Positions 26,634-44,753 of a stretch of 64,000 nucleotides of DNA are shown here, one piece after another. Position 1 is the first letter of the stretch; every line of letters begins with the position of its first letter. Source of the DNA: a phage; assembly GCA_018175275.1 (NCBI GenBank), contig GCA_018175275.1_4531.1. One strand, given 5' to 3'. The notes below the pieces were generated by a model that made no database searches, was not told the origin of the DNA, and was given only the letters and a program-made list of their open reading frames with translations. The position numbers and the translations under genes were made by a program.

Positions 26634-26665
26634 TAACGTGGCAGGGAAGCCATTTATAAGGAGGA

Positions 26666-27861: not shown

Positions 27862-27865
27862 CAAA

Positions 27866-27888
27866 CTGCCCCTTCGGGGGCATTTCTT
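27866..27888 (+). terminator. rho-independent terminator
   Basis: GCCCC-TTCG-GGGGC followed by ATTTCTT. Confidence 0.5.
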
Positions 27889-27906
27889 AAACATAGGAGA
27901 TTAATA

Positions 27907-28341
27907 ATGTTACAAGTTCCTGCTAAGTTTGTTGAAGGCGCTATCCACTCTTACCGTCAAACATGTAAGAGGGCAAGAAACTGTTTAGATGGTCTGGTGG
28001 CAAAAACCTATACTGTTGAAAAGAAGAAACGTTGGTTTGGCAAAGATGTTTACGAAGTTAATATTTTTGGTGAACATAAACTAAACCACGATACTCCTGA
28101 AAACATGTTAGAAATATTTCTAAGAGATGACAAAATATCTCCTATGGATTACCAACTTTTAAAATTTTATGATTCTTCTTTGGCTATTGATAAGTTTGTT
28201 GAGGATATTTTGTCTAGAAAAACAGATAAAAACACTTATCCTCTAGAGGCTGATCAAATAGGATTATTAAACGAGATTTCATCTTTTAAAGAGTTGGATA
28301 ATATTACAAAAGAGGAGATTTTAGATGGCATTAGATTATGA
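27907..28341 (+). CDS. hypothetical protein
   Basis: 144-aa ORF; TAGGAGA upstream. Confidence 0.55.
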   Translation: MLQVPAKFVEGAIHSYRQTCKRARNCLDGLVAKTYTVEKKKRWFGKDVYEVNIFGEHKLNHDTPENMLEIFLRDDKISPMDYQLLKFYDSSLAIDKFVEDILSRKTDKNTYPLEADQIGLLNEISSFKELDNITKEEILDGIRL

Positions 28342-28834
28342 TCGCCCAACGAGCGATTATTATCCTACACCGCAAAAAGCAATCAATAGTTTGTTTAGTG
28401 TTATAGATTTCAAAAATCTAAAGGAAGAAGGTTGGGTTTTTGCAGAACCTTGCAGAGGTGAAGCTGAAGCGATTTATCGCCATTTTCCTGAAGGTTCAGA
28501 ATATTGTGAACTTGAAGAAGGTAAGGATTATTTTAGTCACGAGTGGGAAAATCGTCCCGACATTATAATCACAAACCCTCCATTTAAGTTAGCAATGGAG
28601 TTCTTGGAAAAGAGCTTAAAAGAGGCGGATGTTTGTATTTATCTTCTTCGGTTGGGCTTCTTGGAGTCAAAGAAACGACGAGAGTTCCATCAAAAGAATC
28701 CACCGACAAACCTTATAGTTCTTTCAGAACGGCCTTCGTTTGTTGCAGGTGGAACAGATAAGACAGCATACGCTTGGTATGTATACGACCCAAAGAATCG
28801 TTTGGGCCTCTCTCAACCATTTTATTTTGTTTAA
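28325..28834 (+). CDS. putative DNA N6-adenine methyltransferase (small phage Dam-like)
   Basis: YYPTP near N-terminus and catalytic-type NPPF tetrapeptide; 169 aa. Confidence 0.45.
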   Translation: MALDYDRPTSDYYPTPQKAINSLFSVIDFKNLKEEGWVFAEPCRGEAEAIYRHFPEGSEYCELEEGKDYFSHEWENRPDIIITNPPFKLAMEFLEKSLKEADVCIYLLRLGFLESKKRREFHQKNPPTNLIVLSERPSFVAGGTDKTAYAWYVYDPKNRLGLSQPFYFV

Positions 28835-28846
28835 GGAGTGTGAACT

Positions 28847-29083
28847 ATGGGTAAACTAATTATGACAGTGGCTATTGATTTTGATGAAGTAGATGAAAGC
28901 CTCAACCTTTCACTTTCTACTGATGTAGAGGGTGAAATGGATAATATTGAAGCAGCTACTGCTCTTTTCTTCAAAAAAGCTATTGAAGTTTATGCCGAAC
29001 ATGCTGCAAACCAAGCAGTAGACTATGGCGGCATCGTGCGAGCTTTGGTTCACTCTACCGAGAACAATGACTGGGAAGACTAA
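28847..29083 (+). CDS. hypothetical acidic protein
   Basis: 78-aa ORF; TAAGGAG upstream. Confidence 0.5.
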   Translation: MGKLIMTVAIDFDEVDESLNLSLSTDVEGEMDNIEAATALFFKKAIEVYAEHAANQAVDYGGIVRALVHSTENNDWED

Positions 29084-29286
29084 TGGCTTACAATTATTAC
29101 TGCATTTATGCACATGAAAAGAAAAAAGGTGACACTGGGACTAACGTTTATGCGGAGTCTGAATCTCATGCAAAAGAGATTGGTGCTATCCTTCTATCAC
29201 GCTGGACTGGAAATAATTACAGTGCAGAAGATATGTTTGCAGAAGTGGATTCTGGTATCCAAGAAGACAACATAACAACTACGTGA
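29083..29286 (+). CDS. hypothetical protein
   Basis: 67-aa ORF; TAATG overlap. Confidence 0.5.
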   Translation: MAYNYYCIYAHEKKKGDTGTNVYAESESHAKEIGAILLSRWTGNNYSAEDMFAEVDSGIQEDNITTT

Positions 29287-29332
29287 TATACTTATACTCC
29301 CTTCTCGGAGGGAGTATTTTTAAGGAGGGATT

Positions 29333-29527
29333 ATGCAGAGCGGAGAAGAACTTTTAGAGAAACAATTCTCAACGCGTCAACAAGCTTTAAGTTATATGGT
29401 TTTTCTAAGTAATCTTGATGTGAATGAGATACTTTTACGGCGCGAAGGTAATTTCTGGAGCGTTAAATATCATGCAACAAGGTCTGTAATCTACCTGGAA
29501 GAGGCGGAATTCTCTTTGGTAGAATGA
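29333..29527 (+). CDS. hypothetical protein
   Basis: 64-aa ORF; AAGGAGGG upstream; preceded by hairpin/T-run at 29292-29322. Confidence 0.5.
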   Translation: MQSGEELLEKQFSTRQQALSYMVFLSNLDVNEILLRREGNFWSVKYHATRSVIYLEEAEFSLVE

Positions 29528-29541
29528 TCCGAGGAGTAGTT

Positions 29542-30114
29542 ATGCGTTCAACTTTCACTGGCAAAATAAACGCTGGTTTGATTTTTACCGCAGTAAGCAT
29601 TCTTAGCAAAAAGTTTAAAGTTGTTAACTTACCTGTGTGTGTCGATTTCGATCATGTTTTTGATCCTTCGAACCCCACTCGTTGCATAGTAAGGAGTAAT
29701 GTTGAAAACCCAACAGAAAATCTTTTTTATGTAACAAAACCATCTCAAAGCATACTTAACCAGGTTGAGGCGAAATTGATACCTAACGGTAAATATTACT
29801 CCTTTTTACCTTGTAAGTCGGTTGAAGTAGAGAATAGCAGTACTTTCGCTAACAACTTGTCTGTATTCGTTTTCTTTGTTTCGCACGAAGATGAAACAGA
29901 TGAAATGGTAGCAACAGTGAGATCACTTTATGACTCTTTAGGGGTTGTTTATAGACAACAAGTGTGCGAAAATAATAAAGCCTGTGTAGATTTCATTATC
30001 AACGGTATTTGTGTTTGTAGAGTAGAATCTTTTTGGCTGCACGATACATATGTGACTGTAGCAGAGGTTATATCTGAACCAAAATTTAGTCATGCGGTTT
30101 CGTTAATAATTTGA
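29542..30114 (+). CDS. hypothetical protein
   Basis: Internal ATG of track ORF 29524..30114 with GAGGAG upstream. Confidence 0.55.
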   Translation: MRSTFTGKINAGLIFTAVSILSKKFKVVNLPVCVDFDHVFDPSNPTRCIVRSNVENPTENLFYVTKPSQSILNQVEAKLIPNGKYYSFLPCKSVEVENSSTFANNLSVFVFFVSHEDETDEMVATVRSLYDSLGVVYRQQVCENNKACVDFIINGICVCRVESFWLHDTYVTVAEVISEPKFSHAVSLII

Positions 30115-30124
30115 GGAGGAAGGA

Positions 30125-30454
30125 ATGGAAATTACTACAGAACAAGCCCTTATCGACGAGGGTCGTAAAATCTTAGAAAAGCATTTAGGGGAGATTCATA
30201 AAACTCCTGGCTATTTGGGTTGGAGAATTGTTGAAGCTGTAGATTTCCTTCCTCGTAACAGTAAAAGCGTCGAAATGCGATCTCTTTTCTTATTAGTAAA
30301 GGTGGATGGGGATACACCTTTTAAAGATGCCGCAGAGCATATTGAAAAAGTTGAAGAGAAAGCTTATGCAGAATTTGCCGATCTTGTTTTAGAACAAAAG
30401 ATTGAAGGAAAGGTGAATATTTTTATTTTCTTAGATTTTGAGGAGGATAAGTGA
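30125..30454 (+). CDS. hypothetical protein
   Basis: 109-aa ORF; GAGGAGGAAGG upstream. Confidence 0.55.
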   Translation: MEITTEQALIDEGRKILEKHLGEIHKTPGYLGWRIVEAVDFLPRNSKSVEMRSLFLLVKVDGDTPFKDAAEHIEKVEEKAYAEFADLVLEQKIEGKVNIFIFLDFEEDK

Positions 30455-31194
30455 TCATACATAGAGAAATTACTGTTAAAAGCGATCAAGATCTTTTTAT
30501 AATTGGAGATCTACACGGTTGTTATAATTTGTATGAAAAAGGAAAGGCAAAGTTAGGTATCCGAGATACAGATGTAGTTGTATCTTTAGGAGATCTTACT
30601 GACCGTGGAAAGCAAAACTTTCGTTGTGTTTTAGAATTTACTCGTAAACACAACCGCTACGCTATTCGTGGAAATCATGAAGACATGATGATTAAAGGTA
30701 TGCTGGAAGGAGATCGTAGCTACTTCGAGTGTTGGTATCAAAATGGAGGATATACAGTCCTTGAAGAATGTGGTGAAGAAGGAGCTACAGCCTTAGCAAT
30801 GATGACAGAAGATTTACCTGTTGTTCTCATTGTTAACTACAGAGGCATGAAACTTGCGTTTATTCATGGTGGGTATCCATCTTCTTTGGAATATCTCCCT
30901 GTAACAGATATTCCAGAATACACTTTGAAGATGACAAAAACACAGGAAAACCGTTTTGCTGAAGCACTTATGTGGGACAGAGATATGGTGGACTGTGCTA
31001 AAGAGGGAATGAAACTTCCTGTTGTGATGGGTGTGGACTATGTGTTTCATGGACACTCTTATGTAAAAACACCTATTATCAATGCGAATCGTGTTTATAT
31101 GGATACTGGATCTGTGTTCAATAATAACTTAACATTTGCTTATTTCGATATGGACGGTGGTCTTCAATTTTATTCAACTCTTGAGGAGGATTAA
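30451..31194 (+). CDS. PPP-family Ser/Thr protein phosphatase (lambda PPase / ApaH-like)
   Basis: GDLHG, GDLTDRG and GNHE motifs in order; GTG start after GAGGAGGA. Confidence 0.75.
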   Translation: MIIHREITVKSDQDLFIIGDLHGCYNLYEKGKAKLGIRDTDVVVSLGDLTDRGKQNFRCVLEFTRKHNRYAIRGNHEDMMIKGMLEGDRSYFECWYQNGGYTVLEECGEEGATALAMMTEDLPVVLIVNYRGMKLAFIHGGYPSSLEYLPVTDIPEYTLKMTKTQENRFAEALMWDRDMVDCAKEGMKLPVVMGVDYVFHGHSYVKTPIINANRVYMDTGSVFNNNLTFAYFDMDGGLQFYSTLEED

Positions 31195-31505
31195 TGTATA
31201 AGATTACAATTATTCAAAGTGTAGGTAATATCCGTAAAGAAGTTATCTTAGAAACAGAAGATGTTAATCTTGTTCGTGAGATTGTTTTTAAGGAAGATGA
31301 CCTGCAAGCTGTAGAATCGGATGCACCGAATCTTATGGTGGATCAAGAATATTCTGAACTTCGTCGTATTTTTGAAGAGATTCAGAAGAAAGAAACACAA
31401 CCTACCATAAAACCTTTTGGTCCTTATGATCCGAGCAATCCTAGCAGTCCTTGGATCATGAGAAATACGGAACCCTATTATGCACCTTTTGAAATTACTT
31501 GCTGA
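31194..31505 (+). CDS. hypothetical protein
   Basis: 103-aa ORF; GAGGAGGA upstream. Confidence 0.55.
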   Translation: MYKITIIQSVGNIRKEVILETEDVNLVREIVFKEDDLQAVESDAPNLMVDQEYSELRRIFEEIQKKETQPTIKPFGPYDPSNPSSPWIMRNTEPYYAPFEITC

Positions 31506-31512
31506 GGTGTTT

Positions 31513-32094
31513 ATGGCAGAATTGTTTTATACGGGAGTTGGAAGTAGAGACATCTCCAAAGAAGAGTGGGCTTTGATGGTAGGCATAGGGAAATGGCTTT
31601 CCAACCTTGGATTTAAATTAAGGTCTGGGAAGGCAGAGGGTAGTGATTCTGCTTTTGAAACAGGTGTCCAAGAGTCTGAAAATCCTAGCAACAAGGAGAT
31701 TTATGTACCTTGGGAAAATTTCAAAGGTAATCAGATTCCAGGTGATGTTATTGTTCTTGCAAAACCAGATACAATGAACTATGCTATCTCTGTGCAATGG
31801 ATCAAAGATGTTCACCCAGCTTATGAAAAGCTTAAGCAGGGCGCTAGAAAATTGCACCAACGTAATGTGCATCAGGTGTTAGGTAAAGATTTGGAGAATC
31901 CTGCTCCATCATGTTTCTTGTTGGCTTGTGCCGATACTGATAAACATGGAGATGCAAAAGGTGGAACAGCTACGGCTTGGAAGATAGCTAAAGCCAATAA
32001 TGTTCCTTGTTTAAACATTCGTGGGAAAACAAAACAAGAGATTTACGATTTTCTACGACCTTTGGTAATGAGGGCAATAACAAGTGATTCCTAA
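31513..32094 (+). CDS. DprA/Smf-like Rossmann-fold (SLOG-type) protein
   Basis: GVGSRDIS, SGKAEGSD, QRN and GGTATA segments in DprA-like order; internal ATG of track ORF 31480..32094. Confidence 0.45.
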   Translation: MAELFYTGVGSRDISKEEWALMVGIGKWLSNLGFKLRSGKAEGSDSAFETGVQESENPSNKEIYVPWENFKGNQIPGDVIVLAKPDTMNYAISVQWIKDVHPAYEKLKQGARKLHQRNVHQVLGKDLENPAPSCFLLACADTDKHGDAKGGTATAWKIAKANNVPCLNIRGKTKQEIYDFLRPLVMRAITSDS

Positions 32095-32596
32095 ACGTAA
32101 ACGTGGTGAACAAAGAACAAACTTGGCAGAAATCTTAGATTACAACATGGTTAATGATGTGACAAAAGAAATTCTGCCTGTTGTAGAAGATATTCTTCAA
32201 AGAGGGTTACGATTCTGCTCGGATCGGGTGCATTTCATGTGGACACATAAAAGTGACTCCGCTTTGAATTTCTATCCTTTGGACTATACTCTGAACAATA
32301 CGGAGATGAAAGATATCAACAAATACTTAATGGGATATAAAGATATAACAGAAACTGTTCTTGGAGAATTGGCAGAAATCTTGGCTAACGATATCCTTAG
32401 AAATATTAATAAGGCTCTTGACAGAAGCCCAGCAGGAGTAGTAGTATCTTTTGCTGTGCCAGATATGGTTAAATATGAGTCTACAATACCTAATAAAGCT
32501 TATGCCTTTCTTCGGAGAGACGTTCGTGGAAATGTGTTGGAGATGGAGTCAAACTACAAGATTGAGGAGGTTTTATGGCAGAGTTCGGATCAGTAA
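32084..32596 (+). CDS. hypothetical protein
   Basis: 170-aa ORF, GTG start. Confidence 0.5.
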   Translation: MIPKRKRGEQRTNLAEILDYNMVNDVTKEILPVVEDILQRGLRFCSDRVHFMWTHKSDSALNFYPLDYTLNNTEMKDINKYLMGYKDITETVLGELAEILANDILRNINKALDRSPAGVVVSFAVPDMVKYESTIPNKAYAFLRRDVRGNVLEMESNYKIEEVLWQSSDQ

Positions 32597-32865
32597 CAAG
32601 TTTTGAAAGTAACTTCGTTACCGCTTGGGAAGCTTGGGATGAAATGGGTGTTGGGGAACTTTATTTTTACAATGTAACACTACGTCCAGAGTATGCTTAC
32701 CTGGTACCAGAAGGAACAGTTCAAATTGGCATGTATTTGTCTTCTCAAGACGGTGTTGTTCAATTTGAGTTTTATTCTAACACAACGGACAACGAATTTA
32801 CATACCGCGCATTTCATGTCAACATGTCTTTAGGAGAGGAGAAATTTTATGACGACCAAGTTTAA
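32575..32865 (+). CDS. hypothetical protein
   Basis: 96-aa ORF; GGAGG upstream. Confidence 0.5.
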   Translation: MAEFGSVTSFESNFVTAWEAWDEMGVGELYFYNVTLRPEYAYLVPEGTVQIGMYLSSQDGVVQFEFYSNTTDNEFTYRAFHVNMSLGEEKFYDDQV

Positions 32866-33046
32866 AACAGTAGAAGAAGCCGTAAAAGCAGCTTATGATG
32901 CTTTAGCGGAAGCAGAGCAGTTAGCAGACGAGACTGGAGAAGGTTTCCATTTCTCCCCTGAATATGGGATGGGTGGTTATTATGATCCAGAAGATGAAAA
33001 TGAGAATACTGGGACAAATTGGCATCCATCTTCTTTAAGTTGTTAA
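32849..33046 (+). CDS. small acidic protein, W-x-(P)-S-S-(L)-S-C C-terminal family
   Basis: 65 aa ending NWHPSSLSC; GGAGAGGAG upstream. Confidence 0.5.
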   Translation: MTTKFKTVEEAVKAAYDALAEAEQLADETGEGFHFSPEYGMGGYYDPEDENENTGTNWHPSSLSC

Positions 33047-33057
33047 TAGGAGGTAAA

Positions 33058-33333
33058 GTGGGAATCGAAGATATCAAAGGTTATAAGGCGCATACTGACG
33101 ATAAGATTGGCAAGGTTAACGCTATTAAAGATGCAGAAGAGCGTTTAGGTTTAATCTTCAAAGCTTTAGAGGAAGAGTATTGTGAAGCATATCATGGGTC
33201 TTTTGACGGCACAGAAAAAGAATTAGATGTTGCATACGAGCGTATTGATCAAATCCGTTGTGCTATTAAACATTTAAAAGAAGCTAGTATGTGGGCTTGT
33301 CGTTCAGTTTTCCAACCGGAGGAGAAATACTAA
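33058..33333 (+). CDS. hypothetical protein
   Basis: GTG start after TAGGAGGT inside track ORF 33019..33333. Confidence 0.45.
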   Translation: MGIEDIKGYKAHTDDKIGKVNAIKDAEERLGLIFKALEEEYCEAYHGSFDGTEKELDVAYERIDQIRCAIKHLKEASMWACRSVFQPEEKY

Positions 33334-33551
33334 TGAGTGATCGTAATGTTGAAGAATTAACTGAAAAAGCCCAAGCTATTATGGCTTTAGTGGACGAACT
33401 TACAAAAGAAGCTGAAGATGCTGGTTTTGGTCTTAGTTTAGAAGATAACGCAATCTGTTTTGAAGATTGGCAATCCTCTTCTTGTTATGGTGAAGGTGAT
33501 GATGGTTTTGTCGTTAATTCTCAAGGTGTTTGGCATAGTAGTAGCTGTTAA
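33333..33551 (+). CDS. small acidic protein, W-x-S-S-S-C C-terminal family
   Basis: 72 aa ending GVWHSSSC (also internal DWQSSSC); GGAGGAGAAA upstream. Confidence 0.5.
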   Translation: MSDRNVEELTEKAQAIMALVDELTKEAEDAGFGLSLEDNAICFEDWQSSSCYGEGDDGFVVNSQGVWHSSSC

Positions 33552-33560
33552 GGAGAGATT

Positions 33561-33833
33561 GTGGAGTCTGAAGGCGAACTGCTGATAAAAAAGAAAGTTA
33601 AAGAGATGGAACAAGCACAGAGAAAGTTTCGTAAGGAAATTGAAGAACTTTGTGAACAGTTTCAGGAACAAGCTTGGATAGGTGACTACGGCAACGGAGA
33701 AACTTATTACCCTACAGGAACGCCAGCCGCAGATCACTATATTGATTTCATTTGTGAAGATTATGGTGTAGAGTTGGATGAAAATGGTTTAACCACAAGA
33801 GGTGTTTGGATCTCTTCTTCCTCAATGTGTTAG
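33561..33833 (+). CDS. small acidic protein, W-x-S-S-S-x-C C-terminal family
   Basis: 90 aa ending GVWISSSSMC; GTG start after AAGGAGAG. Confidence 0.5.
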   Translation: MESEGELLIKKKVKEMEQAQRKFRKEIEELCEQFQEQAWIGDYGNGETYYPTGTPAADHYIDFICEDYGVELDENGLTTRGVWISSSSMC

Positions 33834-33841
33834 TAAATAAT

Positions 33842-33865
33842 AACCCGCTTCGGCGGGTTTTTTAT
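33842..33865 (+). terminator. rho-independent terminator
   Basis: ACCCGC-TTCG-GCGGGT followed by TTTTTT. Confidence 0.6.
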
Positions 33866-33893
33866 TGACAGGAATCTGGAAGCTTGATAAACT
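33865..33893 (+). promoter_or_regulatory. sigma70-type promoter
   Basis: TTGACA-17 bp-TAAACT immediately after terminator. Confidence 0.5.
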
Positions 33894-33923
33894 TAACCTA
33901 TCAACCAATAGAGGAGAAATATT

Positions 33924-34865
33924 ATGGTGTTAATTGGTAGCCGTGCATTACAAATTCATGCTATGGACATGGGAAAAGACTTGTATCGCCCTTGTGTAGA
34001 TTTAGATTATCTCTGTACAGAACAAGAGTGGGAAGAATTATCAAAAATGTTCTCTCAAGACGAGTTTGTTGAACTTGTAGAACGTAAAGGGAACAAAGGC
34101 CATGTCAAAATGATAGCTGGTGCACATTTGGAATACGATATTGCTTCTCAAGGAGATAGCACAGAAGCTTTGATTAGTTATTGTGAAGATTCTGATGATG
34201 TTCGTCGAACTTACGCTGGACATGTTGTTGCTCCTTTAGATGTGCTCTACCTTCTTAAAATGAGTCATCGTTTTAAAAAGGATAGTCCTCACTTCTTTAA
34301 AACTATGAAAGATATTCATTTCATGCGGTCACTGGGCGCAAAGATCCCAGAAAATCTTAAGAGTATTTATGAGTTGCGTGAGAAAGAAACATACACTTAC
34401 TCTCATCCGAACTTAAACGTAAAAAGTAAAGAGTTCTTTAAAGGTGACGAGGTTCCGTATGTTTATGATCATGATTCTATCCATGAAGCAATCGCGTTAA
34501 TGGATGCTCCAGCATATAAATCTTATATGAAAGATGGAAGTGAAGTTATGACCAGCAAAGAAAAGTTTTTTGCTCAACCAAAACATGTGCGGCTGTTAGG
34601 TGTTTATGAAGAAGCGTGTGTTTTGGCTTTGGAACGTTCACAAATTCCTTTCGGTGAAGAGATCGGAGGTCCAACCCCTAAGCAAAGTTTTATAATGGCT
34701 TTATCTAAAGTCTGCACATCCATCACTAGTGGTTGGTTTAGGGAATATGCTTGGGAAAACTTTTATGTTGTTATTAAGCTATATGAAAACATGGGCGAAA
34801 ACGACTATGTTGAACGTTTTAAAGCTAATCAACATGTAGTAAAGCCTTTTGAAGGAGGTTATTAA
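33924..34865 (+). CDS. hypothetical protein with possible minimal nucleotidyltransferase motif
   Basis: 313 aa; N-terminal GS...DLD arrangement; GAGGAGAAA upstream. Confidence 0.55.
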   Translation: MVLIGSRALQIHAMDMGKDLYRPCVDLDYLCTEQEWEELSKMFSQDEFVELVERKGNKGHVKMIAGAHLEYDIASQGDSTEALISYCEDSDDVRRTYAGHVVAPLDVLYLLKMSHRFKKDSPHFFKTMKDIHFMRSLGAKIPENLKSIYELREKETYTYSHPNLNVKSKEFFKGDEVPYVYDHDSIHEAIALMDAPAYKSYMKDGSEVMTSKEKFFAQPKHVRLLGVYEEACVLALERSQIPFGEEIGGPTPKQSFIMALSKVCTSITSGWFREYAWENFYVVIKLYENMGENDYVERFKANQHVVKPFEGGY

Positions 34866-34866
34866 T

Positions 34867-35262
34867 ATGTGTGGATATCTTTCAGAAAGTTATTTCAAAG
34901 TGACGCATGAGGATTTAGAAAAAGCACGATTGAAACTGACAGCTATTATTGAATACTCTAATACTGTTGAACACAGATTAAAGACTACTAAAGTATCTGT
35001 TCCTTGTTGGTTAGGTTTACGGCATAAAATAATGTCTCAACATGACCATGTTGTTCGAGAGATGCATGGTTGGTGTTGGTTTCACGATGTGGCTCTGCAT
35101 TTTGGTTATATTACAGAAGAAGAGCATAGATTCTGTGAACTAACATATCGTATTCCAACCCTTCACGATTTAGATTTGTGGAAGAAAGCAAACGAGATTT
35201 TTCTTACAGAAAGTGATTGGCGTAAAGTTATGGCTTGTCTTGAATGGAGGGGTAATGAGTAA
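34867..35262 (+). CDS. hypothetical protein
   Basis: Internal ATG of track ORF 34849..35262 with GGAGG 8 nt upstream. Confidence 0.5.
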   Translation: MCGYLSESYFKVTHEDLEKARLKLTAIIEYSNTVEHRLKTTKVSVPCWLGLRHKIMSQHDHVVREMHGWCWFHDVALHFGYITEEEHRFCELTYRIPTLHDLDLWKKANEIFLTESDWRKVMACLEWRGNE

Positions 35263-35938
35263 AACAGTTTTGTCTATGTTTGACGGATCTGGGATCATGG
35301 TGTTACGTTATGCCGAAGCAGGTCACAAGTGTTTTTGTGTAAACGCTGATGAAGGGGATCACGGTAAATACGAGGTTAGGATGGAGCACCCAAACATAAC
35401 CTATGTGAATGCTTGGATAGATTCTACATTCAACCCTGAAGATCATGGGATACCTAAACCCGATATTATTTTTGGATTTCCACCTTGCACTATGTTAGCA
35501 GGTAGTGGTAGCAAACACGAACGCAGCACAGAGGAATTGGATGAAGCTTTAGCTAATATTCGTGTAGTGGAAGCTTTGGGTAACAAATATAATGTTCCTT
35601 GGATGATTGAGAACCCAGTAGGTAAACTTTCAACCTTATGGCGTAAACCCGATTTTTACTTTGATCCTTATGAGTATGGTGGGTATTTGTTTGAAGAGGA
35701 AGGAAGCTTTCATCCTAAAATGCCTACCCGTGATGGGTATACAAAGAAAACTTGTATTTGGCACGGCAATGGTTTTGTTCAACCAGTGAAGAAACCAGTA
35801 GATCATATAGGCTGCTTCTGGGGTTGGAAAAGCTTAGGTGGAGCTAGTGCAAAAACAAAACAACTTAGATCCCTAACCGCACGTGGTTTTGCTCGTGCCG
35901 TGTTTTTGTCTAACAATCTTCTAGATAAGGAGAAATAA
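35255..35938 (+). CDS. C5-pyrimidine methyltransferase-like protein (compact, no obvious TRD)
   Basis: FDGSG (motif I-like), GFPPCT (PCQ-like with Cys), ENPVG (ENV-like); internal ATG of track ORF 35213..35938. Confidence 0.5.
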   Translation: MSKTVLSMFDGSGIMVLRYAEAGHKCFCVNADEGDHGKYEVRMEHPNITYVNAWIDSTFNPEDHGIPKPDIIFGFPPCTMLAGSGSKHERSTEELDEALANIRVVEALGNKYNVPWMIENPVGKLSTLWRKPDFYFDPYEYGGYLFEEEGSFHPKMPTRDGYTKKTCIWHGNGFVQPVKKPVDHIGCFWGWKSLGGASAKTKQLRSLTARGFARAVFLSNNLLDKEK

Positions 35939-36588
35939 TGTCAAATTCAAAACCAGTAGTTGCTTATCAAGTAGATCGTAATGATGGTGAAGGAAGTGTT
36001 GTTATTTTCAGTACACACGGTCTTGAGGCTCGTCGAAAAGGTGCATATCGTTTAGAATGTGAGTTTGAAGACTGCACAAGCCACCGTGTCAAACAATTCG
36101 ATCAATATGCTGATAAAGGCTTCGTCCCTATCAAAGCCTTACTGGAAGATGGTTGGTGGGTATATTCTGCTTTTGATGGTGTTAGACTCGACGAACCTGT
36201 AGGAGGTCTTGAGGCAGATTTTGACGAATGCGAAGATGGCTTGTATATTGAAGAGGATCTTGTATTTTCCCTTGACGAGAAAAGCGTGTGGAAGAACTGG
36301 GAAGAAATGGAACGTCACGCGCATTTTATCAACAATGCTTTGATTCGTAAAGCTTGGTTTATGGAGGCGGTGAAGGTAGCGTATCCGCAGTTCACCTTTA
36401 CAGAGGTTTGGGGCGGTCCACACCACATCACCCATACAGCATTTTTCGACTTCCCTGGTTCACGTTACAAAGGTAATATAATGTGGGACTGGGATGAGAA
36501 TAAACAACCTTCGGCTCAAGACTTCCGTTGTTATGTTTGCCAAGGCGATCAAGAAGCCCTTGACAAATACCTACAAAGTCTGGTATAG
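35938..36588 (+). CDS. hypothetical protein
   Basis: 216-aa ORF; AAGGAGAAA upstream. Confidence 0.55.
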   Translation: MSNSKPVVAYQVDRNDGEGSVVIFSTHGLEARRKGAYRLECEFEDCTSHRVKQFDQYADKGFVPIKALLEDGWWVYSAFDGVRLDEPVGGLEADFDECEDGLYIEEDLVFSLDEKSVWKNWEEMERHAHFINNALIRKAWFMEAVKVAYPQFTFTEVWGGPHHITHTAFFDFPGSRYKGNIMWDWDENKQPSAQDFRCYVCQGDQEALDKYLQSLV

Positions 36589-36646
36589 TGCCAGCATCTG
36601 AACAAAGCCTCCTGTTTCAGGGGGCTTTTCTTTTATGGGAGGAAAT

Positions 36647-37138
36647 ATGTTTCAAGTAGAAATTCATGTGCACAACAGTTGTTCAAATTGCGAAACTTGT
36701 GGTTACAATAGTTCAACCATGATCACTATTAGCGGAGACTTAGGAGATGCCAAGTTTGGCGAAGTTGCAAGCTGCTTCAGCGGAGAGGATGCAGATTGGC
36801 ATGATATTGCACACTGGTTGGTGAGCAAACTAAAAGAAAAAGAGAAACCATTTCCTGCTCTGCTTGATCGTTCTCTTGTGGAAGATGCAGGTAAAGCATA
36901 TGCAGACTATGCATATGCAGACGGGAAATATTTGGAAGATGATAAGGCTAACCATTTGCTTTATGTTTACTATGAAGCTGAATCTGCCTACGATAATTAT
37001 TACAGCATGTCCAACATTCTACGTTTGTTTGCGGAGTTTGATATTTACTTTGAAGTGAGTTATTCTCAAGACGAAGTGCACGATTTGGATGACGAAGATT
37101 ATGATGATTATGAGGAGGAAGAATGCCAAGACGATTAA
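36647..37138 (+). CDS. hypothetical Zn-finger protein with acidic tail
   Basis: CSNCETCG near N-terminus; D/E-rich C-terminus; GGGAGGAAA upstream; preceded by hairpin/T-run at 36607-36635. Confidence 0.5.
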   Translation: MFQVEIHVHNSCSNCETCGYNSSTMITISGDLGDAKFGEVASCFSGEDADWHDIAHWLVSKLKEKEKPFPALLDRSLVEDAGKAYADYAYADGKYLEDDKANHLLYVYYEAESAYDNYYSMSNILRLFAEFDIYFEVSYSQDEVHDLDDEDYDDYEEEECQDD

Positions 37139-37923
37139 TAGTGATCAGCGGCGCTGGCTTAAGCGCCGATAGCGGTGTTCGTACTTTCCGCACTGACACA
37201 GAAAGTGGCAAAGCTTTGTGGGATGAATACGACCTTTCTGAAGTGTGCGACATTTTCAACTTCCGTGCTGGATACCAACAAGAACAGTGTGTTCCTGGGG
37301 CTGTTGGCGGATTAGATGCAGAGGGATACAACCTCTACCGTAAAACTCATGACTTCTACAATAAACGTCGCGTAGAGATGGATAGTGTAACTCCTAACGC
37401 TGCGCATTACCAGATCGCGGAATGGTTTCAAGAGTACGGCTGTGATCGTGTTATCAACATCACGACAAACGTAGATGATCTTCTGGAACAAGCGGGTGTT
37501 GTTCATGAAGATGTTCTACATGTTCACGGCTTCCTGCCTGAAGTGATCGTAGACAATAGAATCATCAAAGATGTTGGCTATGCTGCTATCGATGTGGATG
37601 ATTACAAGTATGTGAAGCCCAATGTAGTGTTCTTTGGGGAGACTGCCCCATTGTATAACGATATGTACCACATCTTAGACGGCTTGACGGCTCAAGATAT
37701 GGTGATTGTAGTGGGTTGCTCTAATCAAGTTATCAATTTTAACTGGGAGCTTTTTCCTGCTCTTAATAGCGGGACAAAAATGGTTGTAGTTAACCCTGGA
37801 GTTAATTACGAAGAAACACTTCTCTATGAAGATCGTGGAGTTTTTGTTTACCGAGAAAAAGCTGCAACAGCCTTCAGCAATGAAGGTTTCATTAAAATGG
37901 TCGAAGACCACTTAAACAAATAA
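37123..37923 (+). CDS. SIR2-family protein lacking the zinc-ribbon module
   Basis: GAGLSADSGVRTFR, TTNVDDLLEQAG, VHG, VVFFGE, VVGCS in sirtuin order; GAGGAGGAAGA upstream. Confidence 0.65.
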   Translation: MPRRLIVISGAGLSADSGVRTFRTDTESGKALWDEYDLSEVCDIFNFRAGYQQEQCVPGAVGGLDAEGYNLYRKTHDFYNKRRVEMDSVTPNAAHYQIAEWFQEYGCDRVINITTNVDDLLEQAGVVHEDVLHVHGFLPEVIVDNRIIKDVGYAAIDVDDYKYVKPNVVFFGETAPLYNDMYHILDGLTAQDMVIVVGCSNQVINFNWELFPALNSGTKMVVVNPGVNYEETLLYEDRGVFVYREKAATAFSNEGFIKMVEDHLNK

Positions 37924-37929
37924 ACCACT

Positions 37930-37955
37930 CAAGGGGCTTCGGCCCCTTTCTTATT
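37930..37955 (+). terminator. terminator-like hairpin
   Basis: AGGGGC-TTCG-GCCCCT followed by TTCTTATT. Confidence 0.5.
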
Positions 37956-37966
37956 AGGAGAATAAA

Positions 37967-38239
37967 ATGACTGAAGAAATCCGTGATTACTACCTTGCAC
38001 ATTACGTTTACTACTTTGCTAATGCTACACAAAAAGGGGAAGGTAATCTTTACTTGGCAACAGGACATGGAACAGGCGTTAGGAAATCAAATATTGATAA
38101 TGCCTTGGCTCAAGTGGCTGCGGGGCTAGAAGATAAACTTCAAACACCTGTAGTTGTAGTGATGCAAAATATAAGTTACCTAGCAAGTTGTACTGAAACC
38201 GAATTTAACGCGTCTGAGACGCAATCTAACGAAGAATAA
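37967..38239 (+). CDS. hypothetical protein
   Basis: 90-aa ORF; TAGGAGA upstream. Confidence 0.55.
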   Translation: MTEEIRDYYLAHYVYYFANATQKGEGNLYLATGHGTGVRKSNIDNALAQVAAGLEDKLQTPVVVVMQNISYLASCTETEFNASETQSNEE

Positions 38240-38241
38240 AA

Positions 38242-38270
38242 CAAAGGCACCCAAGTGGGTGCCTTTTCTA
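38242..38270. terminator. bidirectional rho-independent terminator between convergent gene blocks
   Basis: AAGGCACCC-AAGT-GGGTGCCTT flanked by A-run and T-run. Confidence 0.6.
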
Positions 38271-38308
38271 TTTTAGAGCGTCTCTGTTCGATTTAGGTGG
38301 GTTCTAGC

Positions 38309-38539
38309 TTACTTGTGCAGTGCTCTCTCGTATAACTCGATGATCAATTCATCCTCTACTGTAATACGCGCCATTTGATCCGTCTTGAGTATTGTTGGTT
38401 GGTAGTGGTGCATTTCACTATTGATACTACAATCCCATTCGTCATAACCTAAATACTCTCCTACATGGACCTTAACCATAAAGGGAAACGGGTTATCTAC
38501 CAAAAATGCCATACAACCTTCTTCGATTTTATTTAACAC
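38309..38539 (-). CDS. hypothetical protein
   Basis: 76-aa ORF, GTG start after AGGAGG. Confidence 0.45.
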   Translation of the reverse strand: MLNKIEEGCMAFLVDNPFPFMVKVHVGEYLGYDEWDCSINSEMHHYQPTILKTDQMARITVEDELIIELYERALHK

Positions 38540-38562
38540 ACGACCTCCTATTGCTACAGATA

Positions 38563-38586
38563 TGAAAAAACCCGCCGAAGCGGGTT
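38563..38586 (-). terminator. terminator/attenuator-like hairpin
   Basis: On minus strand ACCCGC-UUCG-GCGGGU then U-run, 25 nt upstream of next start. Confidence 0.45.
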
Positions 38587-38630
38587 CTATTGCTACGATA
38601 GGATCACTATCCTATAGTATTGTTTCTGTG

Positions 38631-38912
38631 TCAAGCCTTAGCGTAGAAAAACTTCTCATATTCAGATTTTGTTACGATTGTGGGGCAACCTTTTGTTCCA
38701 TCCTCGATAACAGGGGCTTCTACCATTCTGGTGTTGAATAAGCAATAAGTTCCACGCATGTAAATACCCAGTTTTGTTTCTACGATGTGCTCTTTACTTA
38801 CGCTTGAAAACTTAATCTCACCATCGGAGTCTCTTATAGCAATAAGCGCATGTTCGGGCCAATCTTTTCCTTTTGCTCCTAAAGCATTATACAATTCTTG
38901 AACGAGTTCCAT
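38631..38912 (-). CDS. hypothetical protein
   Basis: 93-aa ORF; AAGGAGGT upstream. Confidence 0.6.
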   Translation of the reverse strand: MELVQELYNALGAKGKDWPEHALIAIRDSDGEIKFSSVSKEHIVETKLGIYMRGTYCLFNTRMVEAPVIEDGTKGCPTIVTKSEYEKFFYAKA

Positions 38913-38924
38913 ATGACCTCCTTA

Positions 38925-39098
38925 TTAAATAACAAATTTTTCTTCTTCTGGCTTATCGTAATCTGGAGAATAAACATGTGCGGGATTAAAACCTTTAAAA
39001 TTTCCGCGACCTTTACGTGGACAGTTGAATGTGCGAGCTTGATGATCCCCAAAAGATTTCCCACAATGCATACATTTAAAATCAGTGCGTTTAGTCAT
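38925..39098 (-). CDS. small zinc-ribbon protein
   Basis: Internal ATG of track ORF 38925..39125 with AAGGAG upstream; CMHCG...NCPRKG. Confidence 0.5.
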   Translation of the reverse strand: MTKRTDFKCMHCGKSFGDHQARTFNCPRKGRGNFKGFNPAHVYSPDYDKPEEEKFVI

Positions 39099-39261
39099 GC
39101 CATATCTCCTTTTAAAAGGCTGCACCTATTGAAGATGCAGCTTTGATAGATTATTTAGATGAGTCTAAAATGTCTTTTACTTTTGCCGTGATAACGTCTT
39201 GATATTTGTTAATAAGATAGCCTACAACTACACCTACGATAAATGAAACCATTATTTCTCC

Positions 39262-39870
39262 TTATTTAAGTGGTGAGAGAACAATCTCTCGGTTTTTTAA
39301 GAACCAAAGCATGTCATCTTGATCATAGTCTGATCCCTCTGTAGTAGAATTTTTGATAGAATCAAAAAACCAACGAGGTATACCAAAACAACTTCCAGAT
39401 GACTGCATGTCTTTCTGCGACATTTTAAATGTGATTGGAAAATCACAATTATCAATCTCTCGTATATCTGCTGAAGATAAGATTGTAACTTCAACCAGTT
39501 CGTCGTTAGATGTAGTATCGTTGTCTTCCTGAATAATGTCAAATGCTTTTTGCACATCTTTTGCATCTAATGTTAAACCTGTGGCTTTCTGAAAAGCCGA
39601 AACAAAAATTAGAGCTTCTTCAGAGCAAGGGGCTTCCAGCAAATGAGCCATAATAGGTGACAAGCAAATGTTAAGATCTTTGTCATACCAACGAACAATC
39701 CACACAGGCGTTGCTCCGTTTTGTTTGTCACGAGCCAAAATTGTAACGTGCTGACCTTCTTCTGGTATATGATACAAACCAGAAAAACCAGGGCCTGTAG
39801 TAGATTTTTTGACACGTGCTACGTGTCCAACTTCTAAAGGATCTTTACCATCCCAAATCTTCTCTTCCAT
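39262..39870 (-). CDS. hypothetical protein
   Basis: 202-aa ORF; AGGAGGT upstream. Confidence 0.6.
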   Translation of the reverse strand: MEEKIWDGKDPLEVGHVARVKKSTTGPGFSGLYHIPEEGQHVTILARDKQNGATPVWIVRWYDKDLNICLSPIMAHLLEAPCSEEALIFVSAFQKATGLTLDAKDVQKAFDIIQEDNDTTSNDELVEVTILSSADIREIDNCDFPITFKMSQKDMQSSGSCFGIPRWFFDSIKNSTTEGSDYDQDDMLWFLKNREIVLSPLK

Positions 39871-39878
39871 ATAACCTC

Positions 39879-40142
39879 CTAAATAACATCTTTGAAATAG
39901 TGAATCACTTCAATATTATGGTACAAAGTGCTTCGCTCTTTTGTGTACTCTGTTTTAGTAACAAACACTTTTGCAATACCGTACTTATGTGCTGGTAGGT
40001 TTGGATTGGTTTGCATAATTTCTTTCACTACACTTATAGTTTCGTGCTCGGATTCCCAATAAGTGAAGTAACCCTCACTATCAACGATTAAAGACTCGTT
40101 TTCAAGATCTACAAAACAGAAAAATATTGACGGATGGCTCAT
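39879..40142 (-). CDS. hypothetical protein
   Basis: 87-aa ORF; start overlaps upstream stop. Confidence 0.5.
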   Translation of the reverse strand: MSHPSIFFCFVDLENESLIVDSEGYFTYWESEHETISVVKEIMQTNPNLPAHKYGIAKVFVTKTEYTKERSTLYHNIEVIHYFKDVI

Positions 40143-40306
40143 TCTTTTTCTTCAACCTTCTTCAAAGCTTTTTGATCGAATATAGCGTGTTGCAACTCCC
40201 CGTTTTCATCAAACCAAGTTACTTTACAAGATTCACCATAACTTTCTATTACTGTCATTTGTTTGTTTGCACCTTTAAGACAAACCACATCACCTACTTG
40301 CATCAT
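40139..40306 (-). CDS. small protein (YodC/DUF2158-like pattern)
   Basis: Not in track; about 55 aa MMQVGDVVCLKGANKQMTV...; ATGA overlaps on both sides. Confidence 0.35.
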   Translation of the reverse strand: MMQVGDVVCLKGANKQMTVIESYGESCKVTWFDENGELQHAIFDQKALKKVEEKE

Positions 40307-40752
40307 GATTGAGTTCCTTTTTGTTTTTCAATAGCTGCACGAATTTCTGCTAAAGGCTCTGCTACCAGATCTTCAACTTCTTGGATTTGTTCATTCATTA
40401 CGTCACGAACCATTTGAATCCGCTCTTCAAGGGAAACAGCAAGTTCATCTGCATAAGCCATATTAAGAACGTGGTAGAAATTTTCTTGTGCACTTAAAGC
40501 ACCAGATAACAAATAATCCTGATCTTCCTCTGGTAAAAGCATGTGTTGCTCATATTCAGCAAAAGTGTTTTTGTTAATCTCAAGCAAAGCACCCATCATA
40601 ACATCATACTGATAATCTTTATGACCAGGATTGTTTAAAATAACATCTTCAAAGATATTAAGAAGAATCTTAGTAACAAAAGCATTGTTTTCGGCACCTT
40701 CCATCTGACGGATTACTGTGATTACTTCTTTTTCTTTAGCGTTTTGGCTCAT
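40303..40752 (-). CDS. hypothetical protein
   Basis: 149-aa ORF; AGGAGAAA upstream. Confidence 0.6.
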   Translation of the reverse strand: MSQNAKEKEVITVIRQMEGAENNAFVTKILLNIFEDVILNNPGHKDYQYDVMMGALLEINKNTFAEYEQHMLLPEEDQDYLLSGALSAQENFYHVLNMAYADELAVSLEERIQMVRDVMNEQIQEVEDLVAEPLAEIRAAIEKQKGTQS

Positions 40753-40942
40753 AGTGTTTCTCCTCTGATTCTATTTGGATATAACCTGTGGTTTTGCACG
40801 GGTTACACTCGTAAATTTGACCTACATCCGCCATAACATATCCTGCACCACCACAATAGGGGCAAGGCATAGGAGGACAAGGTATGGACGTAGTGATTGT
40901 TACGACATTATCAATTTTCAACATTTTCGCCATTATTACCAT
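40736..40942 (-). CDS. small zinc-ribbon protein
   Basis: CPPMPCPYCGG...CNPCK. Confidence 0.5.
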   Translation of the reverse strand: MVIMAKMLKIDNVVTITTSIPCPPMPCPYCGGAGYVMADVGQIYECNPCKTTGYIQIESEEKHYEPKR

Positions 40943-40981
40943 TCCGCTATTAACGTCAAACCAAGTGCATCGTTAAAACGC

Positions 40982-41155
40982 TCAACATTTGAGTATAGGT
41001 ATGGAGGGGGTTATTTGCTCTAAAATTTGTGCTGCTTCCACTTGGTGCTCTATGTTTTGAGAAGTTCGGGCATAAACTAAGACACCCATTTTATTCAAAA
41101 TAAAAACAGAATCAGACCCATCCAGCTTATCAACGGCTGCATACATTTTAGTCAT
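40982..41155 (-). CDS. hypothetical protein
   Basis: Internal ATG of track ORF 40982..41185 with AGGAGAAG upstream. Confidence 0.5.
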   Translation of the reverse strand: MTKMYAAVDKLDGSDSVFILNKMGVLVYARTSQNIEHQVEAAQILEQITPSIPILKC

Positions 41156-41168
41156 ATCTTCTCCTGGA

Positions 41169-41384
41169 TTACCACTCAGCAACAAGACTAGGATTCATAG
41201 CAAAAGCTTTGAAAGTTGTTATATCATGACTAACATTAAAACTAACACCTTTTACTTTCTCTAGTATTTGAACTTTCGTCTCTCCGTCCCACGGTAGGAT
41301 GATAACACCATCTGCTGTGATCAACCACCAATGGTTCTCTCCATCTCGTGAATCTTTTGCTTTGTATAGAAAATTGGAACTCAT
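41169..41384 (-). CDS. hypothetical protein
   Basis: 71-aa ORF; AGGAGGAAG upstream. Confidence 0.6.
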   Translation of the reverse strand: MSSNFLYKAKDSRDGENHWWLITADGVIILPWDGETKVQILEKVKGVSFNVSHDITTFKAFAMNPSLVAEW

Positions 41385-41399
41385 TCTTCCTCCTGTTCG

Positions 41400-41720
41400 G
41401 TATTATTCACTTGTGAGACACAATGTAACATAAGCTTTGTGAGTTTGTCAAGGATCTAATTACATTCTACAGAAGAAGAGGGTTAATAACTATAGGAATA
41501 GTCTTACTATAGGTGCAATACTAGTTAAGAGTTAGATTGATAGGTAAGACTTATCTTAAACAGATAATTGATAGGTGAATCAGCATTGACTTTTTCAAAA
41601 AAATATGGTACCCTAAACATATGTTTACGAGCGATAGCGAGTAGTAGATTTCTATATAATAATGTTTCATGTTACTCACGATAGTGAGGTATGAAACGTA
41701 AGTGAAGGTAGATAAACTAT
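41400..41720. promoter_or_regulatory. ORF-free regulatory region with direct repeats and long hairpin
   Basis: Direct repeats ATTGATAGGT (x2) and ACTATAGG (x2); nested hairpin GTTTCAT..CTCAC-GATA-GTGAG..ATGAAAC; promoter-like TTGACA on minus strand. Confidence 0.4.
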
Positions 41721-41744
41721 GATCATCTATCTACCATCTATTAA

Positions 41745-41954
41745 TCAATATAGATCTAATGTTAGACTAACAGTTATCCAACAAACAATAGCAGTCCATA
41801 TAACAAGTAATGATCTACAAACTACATCCCATTCAAATACATTGTATGTTAACCATTCTCCCATCACAACAGAAGAACCCAACCAACATCCAACAACAAC
41901 TATAATCCAATAAAAGAATCCTACAGTAGAGTATACAGCAAAAGCTTTTAACAT
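41745..41954 (-). CDS. small membrane protein (two predicted TM segments)
   Basis: 69 aa, hydrophobic; GGAGGAAAG upstream. Confidence 0.55.
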   Translation of the reverse strand: MLKAFAVYSTVGFFYWIIVVVGCWLGSSVVMGEWLTYNVFEWDVVCRSLLVIWTAIVCWITVSLTLDLY

Positions 41955-42367
41955 CTTTCCTCCAGAAGTTGTTCAACAGTTTGACGAGTATGATTGTCCC
42001 AGTAAACCTTAGTGAAGTCAAGAGTTCCTTGTTCGTTTCTCTTAGTTTCGAAGAAGTATCCGCCTTCTCTTTCTACTCTGTCTCTAATGTGCTCTATGAG
42101 GTGCTTTTTACAAGATGCTGATAAACAATAGTCATACTCCCCACGAAGCAATGCTATAGCTGCAAGTCTGTTATCACCAACTTGAGATATTGTCCAAGAA
42201 AGCATACTACCTTTTATACCTAAAGGTGTTTGTCGAATGGAATATCCACCATGCCGACTGATAGAAATTATGGCAAGTGGTTCTCCTGTTAGAGATCTTC
42301 CTAATGCACCTTCTGTTGGACTTCCTTCGATAATACGTTTGAAAAAGGCTTTGATCTTACCTAACAT
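41948..42367 (-). CDS. hypothetical protein
   Basis: 139-aa ORF; GGGGGA upstream. Confidence 0.55.
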   Translation of the reverse strand: MLGKIKAFFKRIIEGSPTEGALGRSLTGEPLAIISISRHGGYSIRQTPLGIKGSMLSWTISQVGDNRLAAIALLRGEYDYCLSASCKKHLIEHIRDRVEREGGYFFETKRNEQGTLDFTKVYWDNHTRQTVEQLLEERC

Positions 42368-42384
42368 AAGTCCCCCTTAAAAAT

Positions 42385-42519
42385 TTACTTGTTTAAAGTA
42401 TCTCTTACTTGTTCTGCTTGACGTTTAGTAATAAAAGTCCCAACCGAAACGTTAAACTCATTGACTACAGAGAACGATCCATCACGGTTCTCACGAATAT
42501 TAAACAATTTCTTACTCAT
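42385..42519 (-). CDS. small protein (about 44 aa)
   Basis: Not in track; GGAGGTAGAA upstream; ATGAGTAA-type overlap with upstream stop. Confidence 0.35.
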   Translation of the reverse strand: MSKKLFNIRENRDGSFSVVNEFNVSVGTFITKRQAEQVRDTLNK

Positions 42520-42715
42520 TTCTACCTCCTTCAATGCTTTGTGCCGTACCATCCCAAGCCATTAGAATGTTTTCCAATAGTTCACGAGGATCTTTAAACC
42601 AAACTTCCATTTCATCAAGGATCTCGTCCGTGTCGTAAGTATAACCTGGAACACCAAGTTCACATTTCTTAAGATAGCTTTCTAACCAGCGGTGATAATT
42701 CTTAACCCCATTCAT
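42512..42715 (-). CDS. hypothetical protein
   Basis: 67-aa ORF. Confidence 0.5.
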   Translation of the reverse strand: MNGVKNYHRWLESYLKKCELGVPGYTYDTDEILDEMEVWFKDPRELLENILMAWDGTAQSIEGGRNE

Positions 42716-43040
42716 ACTGTGCTACCTTTTCTTTTACCCAATCTACACGATCTTTATCATAATGTTGAGTGCCAAGGAAAAGACCATTGTGGAAACTTTC
42801 CTCACCGAAAGGATAAATTGGATCTAAACCATCTTCTTCAAATAACATTTTTAATCTGTTTGATGTAGATTTCTTAGTTTCTGAATTGTAGTTTGTGGTT
42901 ATAAGCCAATCTTCCAAACAACGACACAAACCTTGACGAGAATCCCAAGGAAAAACACAATCTCCGACAGGAGCTTGTTCCGCCCATTTCAACCAGCCTT
43001 TAAAAAAGTTATACAGTATGTAGTCTTCAGTGTAATACAT
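42702..43040 (-). CDS. paralog family A protein (GLC...PF...RVxWV motif)
   Basis: Internal ATG of track ORF 42702..43088 with AAGGAGGAG upstream; shares WL..W, GLCRCL, PFG, RVDWVKE with five other ORFs. Confidence 0.55.
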   Translation of the reverse strand: MYYTEDYILYNFFKGWLKWAEQAPVGDCVFPWDSRQGLCRCLEDWLITTNYNSETKKSTSNRLKMLFEEDGLDPIYPFGEESFHNGLFLGTQHYDKDRVDWVKEKVAQYEWG

Positions 43041-43091
43041 TATCTCCTCCTTTACGTATACAATAACACCCCGAAGAACGGGGTGCAACTG

Positions 43092-43703: not shown

Positions 43704-43707
43704 AAAA

Positions 43708-43980
43708 TCACCCCCAAGAAATATTTATATATCTTACAATGTTTGCACTGTCTAAAGCCATGTTTGCACCACACCCACGCTCGCGCCAGTAACTAACAAT
43801 ACCTTCACAGATACTCTCTTGTATCTTCTTATCACTTGGCATTTCTAGTATAAGACTTGGGTTGTGGATGTTTATGTTATAATACCCTTCCTCTGCTGCT
43901 TGAGCTACCAATTTACTTACTTTTTCAAAGTACGGGGAATTAGTGGCATCTGCCATTGTTTTTAAGGTTTGTCTATCCAT
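43708..43980 (-). CDS. hypothetical protein
   Basis: 90-aa ORF; TAATG overlap. Confidence 0.5.
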   Translation of the reverse strand: MDRQTLKTMADATNSPYFEKVSKLVAQAAEEGYYNINIHNPSLILEMPSDKKIQESICEGIVSYWRERGCGANMALDSANIVRYINISWG

Positions 43981-44745: not shown

Positions 44746-44753
44746 ATCCTCTC

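Follow-up and report, generated by a model that had tools for sequence, protein, structure and literature searches.

The gene at 35255..35938 of the window, by which we mean the whole 64,000-nt stretch of phage DNA analysed here, very probably codes for a SAM-dependent DNA cytosine-C5 methyltransferase that stands alone (an orphan) and belongs to the family of compact 'Dcm-like' phage enzymes (phrog_757). The reading frame, the motifs, their conservation, the fold and the family membership behind this assignment come from the present analysis, and the formation of 5mC, the dependence on catalytic residues and the triggering of a retron come from papers on homologues. We infer the recognition sequence, the role of a short variable segment and the biological role in the window phage. 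The features of the gene and its surroundings were as follows.

33842-33859 and 33865-33893, plus strand: terminator-like hairpin followed by a promoter-like site, 5' of a four-gene unit; both come from a consensus scan alone, which is no proof of function
35246..35250, plus strand: Shine-Dalgarno sequence GGAGG, 4 nt 5' of the ATG, read from the sequence
35255..35938, plus strand: coding sequence of the compact Dcm-like DNA cytosine-C5 methyltransferase, 227 aa plus stop
35279..35293, plus strand: motif I-like FDGSG, residues 9-13, predicted SAM-binding loop after strand 1, aligning with FSGAGG of M.HaeIII
35474..35491, plus strand: motif IV GFPPCT, residues 74-79, with the predicted nucleophile Cys78, aligning with GGPPCQ of M.HaeIII and GFPCQ of E. 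coli Dcm
35609..35623, plus strand: motif VI-like ENPVG, residues 119-123, at the end of model strand 116-121
35738..35752, plus strand: YTKKT, residues 162-166, putatively at the position of motif VIII (classical QxRxR)
35762..35866, plus strand: short variable segment, residues 170-204, at the position of a target-recognition domain; the part of the alignment with most variation and most indels, with a putative role in DNA recognition
35867..35902, plus strand: RSLTARGFARAV, residues 205-216, motif IX-like C-terminal helix, paired with E. coli Dcm by hhalign at low probability
36604..36628, plus strand: strong terminator-like hairpin closing the unit 33924..36588, 11-bp stem with a T tail, from a consensus scan alone

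The original prediction had pointed to a 227-aa frame with FDGSG, GFPPCT and ENPVG. All of them are present and conserved across homologues, and hence they are no chance patterns. Conservation was read from two alignments, a close one of 33 homologues with 60-74% identity to the window protein and a wide one of 46 family representatives reaching down to about 31% identity. Residues F9, D10, G11, S12, G13, F75, P76, C78, T79 and E119-G123 are invariant in the 33 homologues. Among the 46 representatives, C78, G85, E119, P121, P138, Y162, W169 and P177 are invariant, F75, P76, N120, K164, T166, R205, S206, T208, P209, G211 and A215 are nearly invariant, and FDGSG loosens to D-x-[ST]-G in distant members. 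Around the catalytic Cys, the family consensus reads FPPCTDLAVSGAR. It means that Thr after Pro-Cys, the PPCT in place of PCQ, is the family norm and no quirk of a single phage.

The correspondence of FDGSG and GFPPCT with M.HaeIII was obtained from a HMMER alignment, and the motif correspondence to classical enzymes in general is based on the fold search and a published superposition. The window protein has neither QxRxR (motif VIII) nor GNAV (motif X) in literal form. YTKKT is conserved at the equivalent strand start and a C-terminal helix takes the place of the later motifs; the protein terminates 11 residues past RSLTARGFARAV, with no separate GNAV there. A separate target-recognition domain (about 80 residues or more) is absent between motifs VIII and IX. 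The distance from YTKKT to RSLTxRGFARAV is about 35 residues (170-204), against a gap of about 117 residues in E. coli Dcm, and the earlier view that the protein is too short for a conventional target-recognition domain was right. In the wide alignment, the region from W169 to R205 (alignment columns about 240-280) is the most variable and the richest in indels, as would be expected of a segment that determines specificity.

An AlphaFold2 model made with the 33-sequence alignment had a pLDDT of 86.4 and a pTM of 0.87. Strands and helices alternate in its core, and confidence is low in a loop at residues 85-87 right after the catalytic Cys. The best 50 matches of a Foldseek search against the PDB were the catalytic domains of DNMT3A and DNMT3B and M.HaeIII, with probability 1.00, and the fold-search scores were 13.2 for DNMT3B, 12.0 for 3g7u, 11.4 for DNMT3A, 11.1 for M.HhaI, 10.9 for M.HaeIII, 10.7 for M.MpeI and 10.3 for DNMT1. 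The class I SAM-methyltransferase fold of the model is closest to solved DNA C5-methyltransferases, which rank over Dnmt2 and the NSUN/Fmu RNA enzymes, and the named neighbours among predicted viral structures are cytosine methylases. The original prediction had held that the lack of a fold-level match to class I methyltransferases would speak against it; such a match was looked for and found (DNMT3A/B, M.HaeIII), so that refutation fails.

DNMT3A and DNMT3B are eukaryotic, CpG-specific and oligomeric enzymes with regulatory domains, and their catalytic domain shares 14-21% identity with the window protein at a TM-score of only about 0.5. DNMT3 has PCN rather than PCQ, which means that the residue after Pro-Cys varies among active enzymes. 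To our knowledge, the recognition domains of DNMT3 are the smallest among characterised C5-methyltransferases. The small recognition domain and PCN fit with DNMT3 as the best structural match.

M.HhaI and M.HaeIII share their fold and the order of motifs I, IV and VI with the window protein, but they are about 100 residues longer and carry a separate target-recognition domain and the literal PCQ, QxRxR and GNAV. E. coli Dcm (EcoKDcm, PF00145 family) agrees with the window protein in predicted chemistry and possibly also in the CCWGG target, with motif IV (PC) and motif IX (R-LTPRE/G-AR) recognisable in both, whereas it is 472 aa long against 227 aa and is linked with vsr, which the window gene lacks as a partner. 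The family profile scored 1.3 bits against E. coli Dcm in hmmsearch, with the PC motif alone aligned. In hhalign, only 17 columns were paired, QLRSLTPRGFARAV with the motif IX segment RPRRLTPRECARLMGF, at a probability below 2%. Judging from these comparisons, 'Dcm-like' is a functional nickname and not a statement of orthology with E. coli Dcm.

The window protein matched phrog_757 'DNA methyltransferase' with E 1.8e-84, residues 1-225 falling on profile positions 13-223 of 247. Pfam PF00145 scored 11.6 bits against a gathering cut-off of 22, over residues 4-92 only, and a Pfam scan of the 33 homologues found it in just one (E 0.065). No match to the window protein was obtained in an NCBIfam scan, and the profile of 33 homologues had no match at E up to 1 among all PDB sequences. 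The family is a blind spot of Pfam and NCBIfam, so that members are often left as 'hypothetical protein'.

Homologues were found by tblastn in 1,488 phage records, many of them named Dcm or C5 cytosine methyltransferase. The phages include Drexlerviridae, Vequintavirinae, Stephanstirmvirinae, Krischvirus and Vibrio phages, and the homologues of Klebsiella siphoviruses carry the names Dcm or DNA cytosine methyltransferase. A search of 5.8 billion proteins gave 870 homologue clusters with very uniform lengths, and a profile search of 1.84 billion representatives gave 1,861 clusters at E up to 0.001, mostly of 200-260 aa. Because the lengths are this uniform family-wide, the small size is a property of the family and not the result of truncation. 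The window protein fits this pattern with a single domain of 227 aa and conserved Cys, Glu and Lys-Lys. In BFVD, A0A6J5SE15 (1,397 aa, uncultured Caudovirales phage, 'Helicase/UvrB, N-terminal') has a domain resembling the compact methyltransferase (Foldseek E 1.5e-11, 27% identity), which means that the module is also found fused to a helicase.

Over the 1.8 kb around the gene, identity is 99.3% to Escherichia phage SKA64 and 93-94% to ESCO13, phAPEC8_ev052, anhysbys and other Phapecoctavirus (Stephanstirmvirinae), and by this nucleotide identity the window is a Phapecoctavirus (phAPEC8-like coliphage) genome. Translation of the corresponding region in phages BI-EHEC and vB_EcoM_DE16 gives exactly the window protein (100% identity). 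Phapecoctavirus records list the gene variously as 'DNA methyltransferase', 'DNA methylase', 'Dcm', 'putative site-specific DNA methylase' or 'hypothetical protein', and it is named in the records of ESCO13, anhysbys and phAPEC8_ev052. The gene is therefore already known, with a name in sister genomes, a named PHROG and an experimentally studied homologue. As a discovery, a routine orphan methyltransferase of this kind has little weight.

The studied homologue is a 711-bp 'Dcm-like C5 cytosine methyltransferase' gene of phage K42, a relative of KarlJaspers/Bas06, which is the trigger of retron Ec86 (bioRxiv 10.1101/2023.08.16.553469). In that work, all four Ec86 escaper phages had lesions in or just 5' of the K42 dcm gene, and expression of this gene alone halted the growth of retron-carrying cells. 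LC-MS of msDNA in vivo showed high 5mC with wild-type K42 Dcm and low 5mC with a C82A/E128A/K175A/K176A mutant and with empty vector. The quadruple mutant was the inactive control in growth and transformation assays, and E128 was put in the predicted active site by superposing a K42 AlphaFold2 model on DNMT3A (bioRxiv 10.1101/2023.08.16.553469). Later papers cite a peer-reviewed version under the title 'DNA methylation activates retron Ec86 filaments for antiphage defense'.

In KarlJaspers (MZ501090), bas06_0055 is exactly 711 bp long and annotated 'Dcm-like C5 cytosine methyltransferase', and its product aligns with the window protein from end to end at 50% identity (E 1e-71). The K42 residues C82, E128, K175 and K176 correspond to C78, E119, K164 and K165 of the window protein, and all are conserved. 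The two proteins are alike in length (236 against 227 aa), in FPPCT, ENPVG, KKT and RSLTPRGFARAVF, and in being encoded by a stand-alone gene of a lytic coliphage. They differ in the short variable segment 170-204 (ILPKEDDKDNPGWAKTGG against KKPVDHIGCFWGWKSLGG). KarlJaspers is a Drexlerviridae siphovirus while the window phage is a Stephanstirmvirinae myovirus, and the genomic neighbours are different.

The window protein is also 52% identical to gp52 of Pantoea phage AAS23 (E 7e-82). AAS23 gp52 had no conserved domain by routine search and matched C5-methyltransferases by HHpred, and the virion DNA was reported as Dcm-methylated from restriction digests (PMC8004638). The window protein likewise is blank in routine domain search and similar to C5-methyltransferases. 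The AAS23 evidence is not an enzyme assay but a digest pattern of virion DNA, to which host Dcm may have contributed. The BASEL paper described C5-cytosine methyltransferases as abundant in Drexlerviridae, with no simple tie to restriction resistance. The fold, the phrog_757 match and the published work on homologues of 50-52% identity together bear out the earlier idea that the protein is a DNA cytosine-C5 methyltransferase whose specificity module is reduced.

The earlier suggestion that the protein modifies C5 of pyrimidines in RNA (as a Dnmt2-like tRNA m5C enzyme) or in free nucleotides, and not in DNA, draws on the lack of a large DNA-recognition domain, and we regard it as very improbable, since DNA methyltransferases outrank Dnmt2 and NSUN/Fmu in the fold search. 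C5 modification of nucleotides in phages is carried out by thymidylate-synthase-like enzymes, which have a different fold and count against a nucleotide substrate. The tested K42 homologue methylates msDNA, with an effect tied to a DNA motif of the msDNA stem. There is an even slighter chance that the enzyme is a C5-cytosine transferase with a non-SAM cofactor, for example carboxy-SAM from host CmoA, adding a larger group (carboxymethyl). The fold-search score on its side is no better than those of the ordinary methyltransferases 3g7u (12.0), DNMT3B (13.2) and M.HhaI (11.1), no cofactor-synthesis gene is found among the six scanned neighbouring ORFs, and the 50%-identical K42 enzyme yields 5mC by LC-MS (bioRxiv 10.1101/2023.08.16.553469).

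A catalytically dead, DNMT3L-like remnant that binds DNA or protein only would agree with the degenerate motifs (QxRxR and GNAV are lacking, and Asn30 replaces the Asp of the wider family) and with a PF00145 score under the Pfam threshold. But Cys78, Glu119, Pro121 and Tyr162 do not vary even in representatives of about 31% identity, several independent phage isolates encode the protein without any change (100% conservation), and function was lost when the same residues were mutated in K42 Dcm (bioRxiv 10.1101/2023.08.16.553469), so that we give this reading just as little credence as the non-SAM cofactor. An active SAM-dependent DNA cytosine-C5 methyltransferase is the explanation that we prefer.

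For this methyltransferase, a longer GTG start (35213, 241 aa) was rejected, since homologues begin at the same MSK/MKK position and since the ribosome-binding site is spaced for the ATG at 35255. The RefSeq coding sequence in phage ESCO13 is the same 684 nt. From the sequence, the start of the gene and the stop of its upstream neighbour overlap by 8 nt, and the stop of the gene overlaps the ATG of the next one downstream. The methyltransferase is gene 3 of 4 in the overlapping, co-directional unit 33924..36588, where the other genes encode a DUF7277/DUF7275 protein, phrog_16551 and phrog_8514. The first of them (33924..34865, plus strand) encodes a 313-aa DUF7277+DUF7275 protein (PF23940, E 1.2e-75), whose N-terminus LIGSRAL...VDLDYL recalls, by eye alone, the G-S...D-x-D signature of Pol-beta-type nucleotidyltransferases.

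A conserved partner gene acting as a recognition subunit in trans, as in the split M.AquI, was considered and rejected. When the five ORFs next to it were compared by tblastn with loci from six other phages, the methyltransferase was the sole shared gene, and the unit partners were absent beside it in the Drexlerviridae, Vequintavirus, Certrevirus and Krischvirus loci. Because the neighbours are not conserved across phage groups and K42 Dcm is active when expressed alone, the methyltransferase requires no dedicated partner subunit. It behaves as a mobile orphan gene. No Vsr was found among its neighbours (DUF7277/DUF7275, phrog_16551, phrog_8514, phrog_9509 and Sir2).

The Sir2-family protein (37123..37923, plus strand) was identified with PF02146 (E 6.5e-20) and phrog_2162 (E 5.9e-102) and has the NAD-binding motif GAGLSADSG. 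A small ORF after it (37967..38239, plus strand) matches the ESCO13 'Sir2-like protein' gene in position and length. Upstream of the unit there are three tandem small paralogous ORFs (32849..33046, 33330..33551 and 33561..33833, plus strand) with 31-34% identity and a conserved C-terminal W-x-x-SS-x-C (NWHPSSLSC, GVWHSSSC, GVWISSSSMC). A C-terminal Cys after a Ser run is unusual.

A second methyltransferase-like gene had been proposed at 28325..28834 (plus strand), and both phrog_799 and the annotations of other phages agree with this. Its 169-aa product has the layout of a gamma-type amino-methyltransferase (FAEPCRGEA, then IIITNPPF) and matches phrog_799 'DNA methyltransferase' with E 2.8e-59 at profile positions 206-373 of 458; no Pfam model matched. 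Homologues are present in 544 phage records including phi92, and some are named N6-adenine methyltransferase. Like the C5 enzyme, this protein is too short for a separate recognition domain.

By analogy, the specificity of the window enzyme is probably CCWGG. The flanks of the variable segment (GNGFV-P, GW, GG-S and TK-x-RSLT-RGF) are common to the window, AAS23 and KarlJaspers proteins, which makes a shared specificity plausible. Literature searches found no Phapecoctavirus methylome and no mapped recognition site for the compact family. The K42 study borrows CCWGG from E. coli Dcm, the methylated base not being mapped, and reports that a CCTGG mutation in the msDNA stem abolishes Ec86 defence (bioRxiv 10.1101/2023.08.16.553469). 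Its assays were done in dcm+ MG1655, where the retron was not self-activated and control msDNA had low 5mC (bioRxiv 10.1101/2023.08.16.553469). The low 5mC of the control means that the phage enzyme may differ from host Dcm in site, substrate form or dosage.

We counted short palindromes in the window (1..64000). The observed/expected ratio was 0.31 for GGCC, 0.39 for CCGG, 0.41 for GTAC and 0.47 for CTAG, and CCSGG was found 0 times against 7.9 expected. GATC (1.01), GCGC, CGCG, TGCA and CCWGG (76 sites, 1.08) were at expectation. The depleted palindromes suggest past restriction of HaeIII, HpaII and RsaI type, with Dam and Dcm sites either protected or indifferent. The neutral count of CCWGG is a weak indication, compatible with protection of CCWGG and not diagnostic. 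Cm5CWGG is not a target of McrBC (RmC). Escape of Cm5CWGG from McrBC would explain the plating of such phages on K-12.

Following the paradigm of C5-methyltransferases, the enzyme would work as follows. The Rossmann-like core would hold SAM by the FDGSG loop, and the target cytosine would be flipped into the enzyme pocket. Cys78 of FPPCT would attack C6 while Glu119 of ENPVG protonates N3, and the methyl group would then be delivered to C5 of the cytosine. DNA would be contacted by K164/K165 (YTKKT), the variable segment 170-204 and the flexible loop 80-91. During infection the four-gene unit would express the methyltransferase, so that phage DNA under replication, along with whatever further DNA is in the cell, would be methylated at a short site, probably CCWGG. 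Such methylation would shield the phage genome from EcoRII-type restriction without making targets for McrBC. Triggering of retron Ec86 (Eco1) in hosts that carry it would be a side effect.

We also offer a bolder view of the family, which we think unlikely as a whole. At about 220 aa, the compact enzymes may be the smallest DNA C5-methyltransferases in nature that stand alone, with a reader of roughly 35 residues and perhaps a DNMT3-like dimer, and their target may not be the host Dcm site. On this view, the finding that Ec86 is silent in dcm+ MG1655 yet activated by the phage Dcm would point to another cytosine, another motif, or a preference for hairpin or single-stranded DNA. If the target were indeed unlike that of host Dcm, the Phapecoctavirus copy, with its own variant of the segment, would represent an unmapped specificity. 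For the phage itself, the assignment predicts that its DNA carries 5mC, which would affect restriction mapping, nanopore base-calling and sensitivity to methylation-dependent nucleases, and that it would trigger retron Ec86 (Eco1) in hosts carrying this retron.
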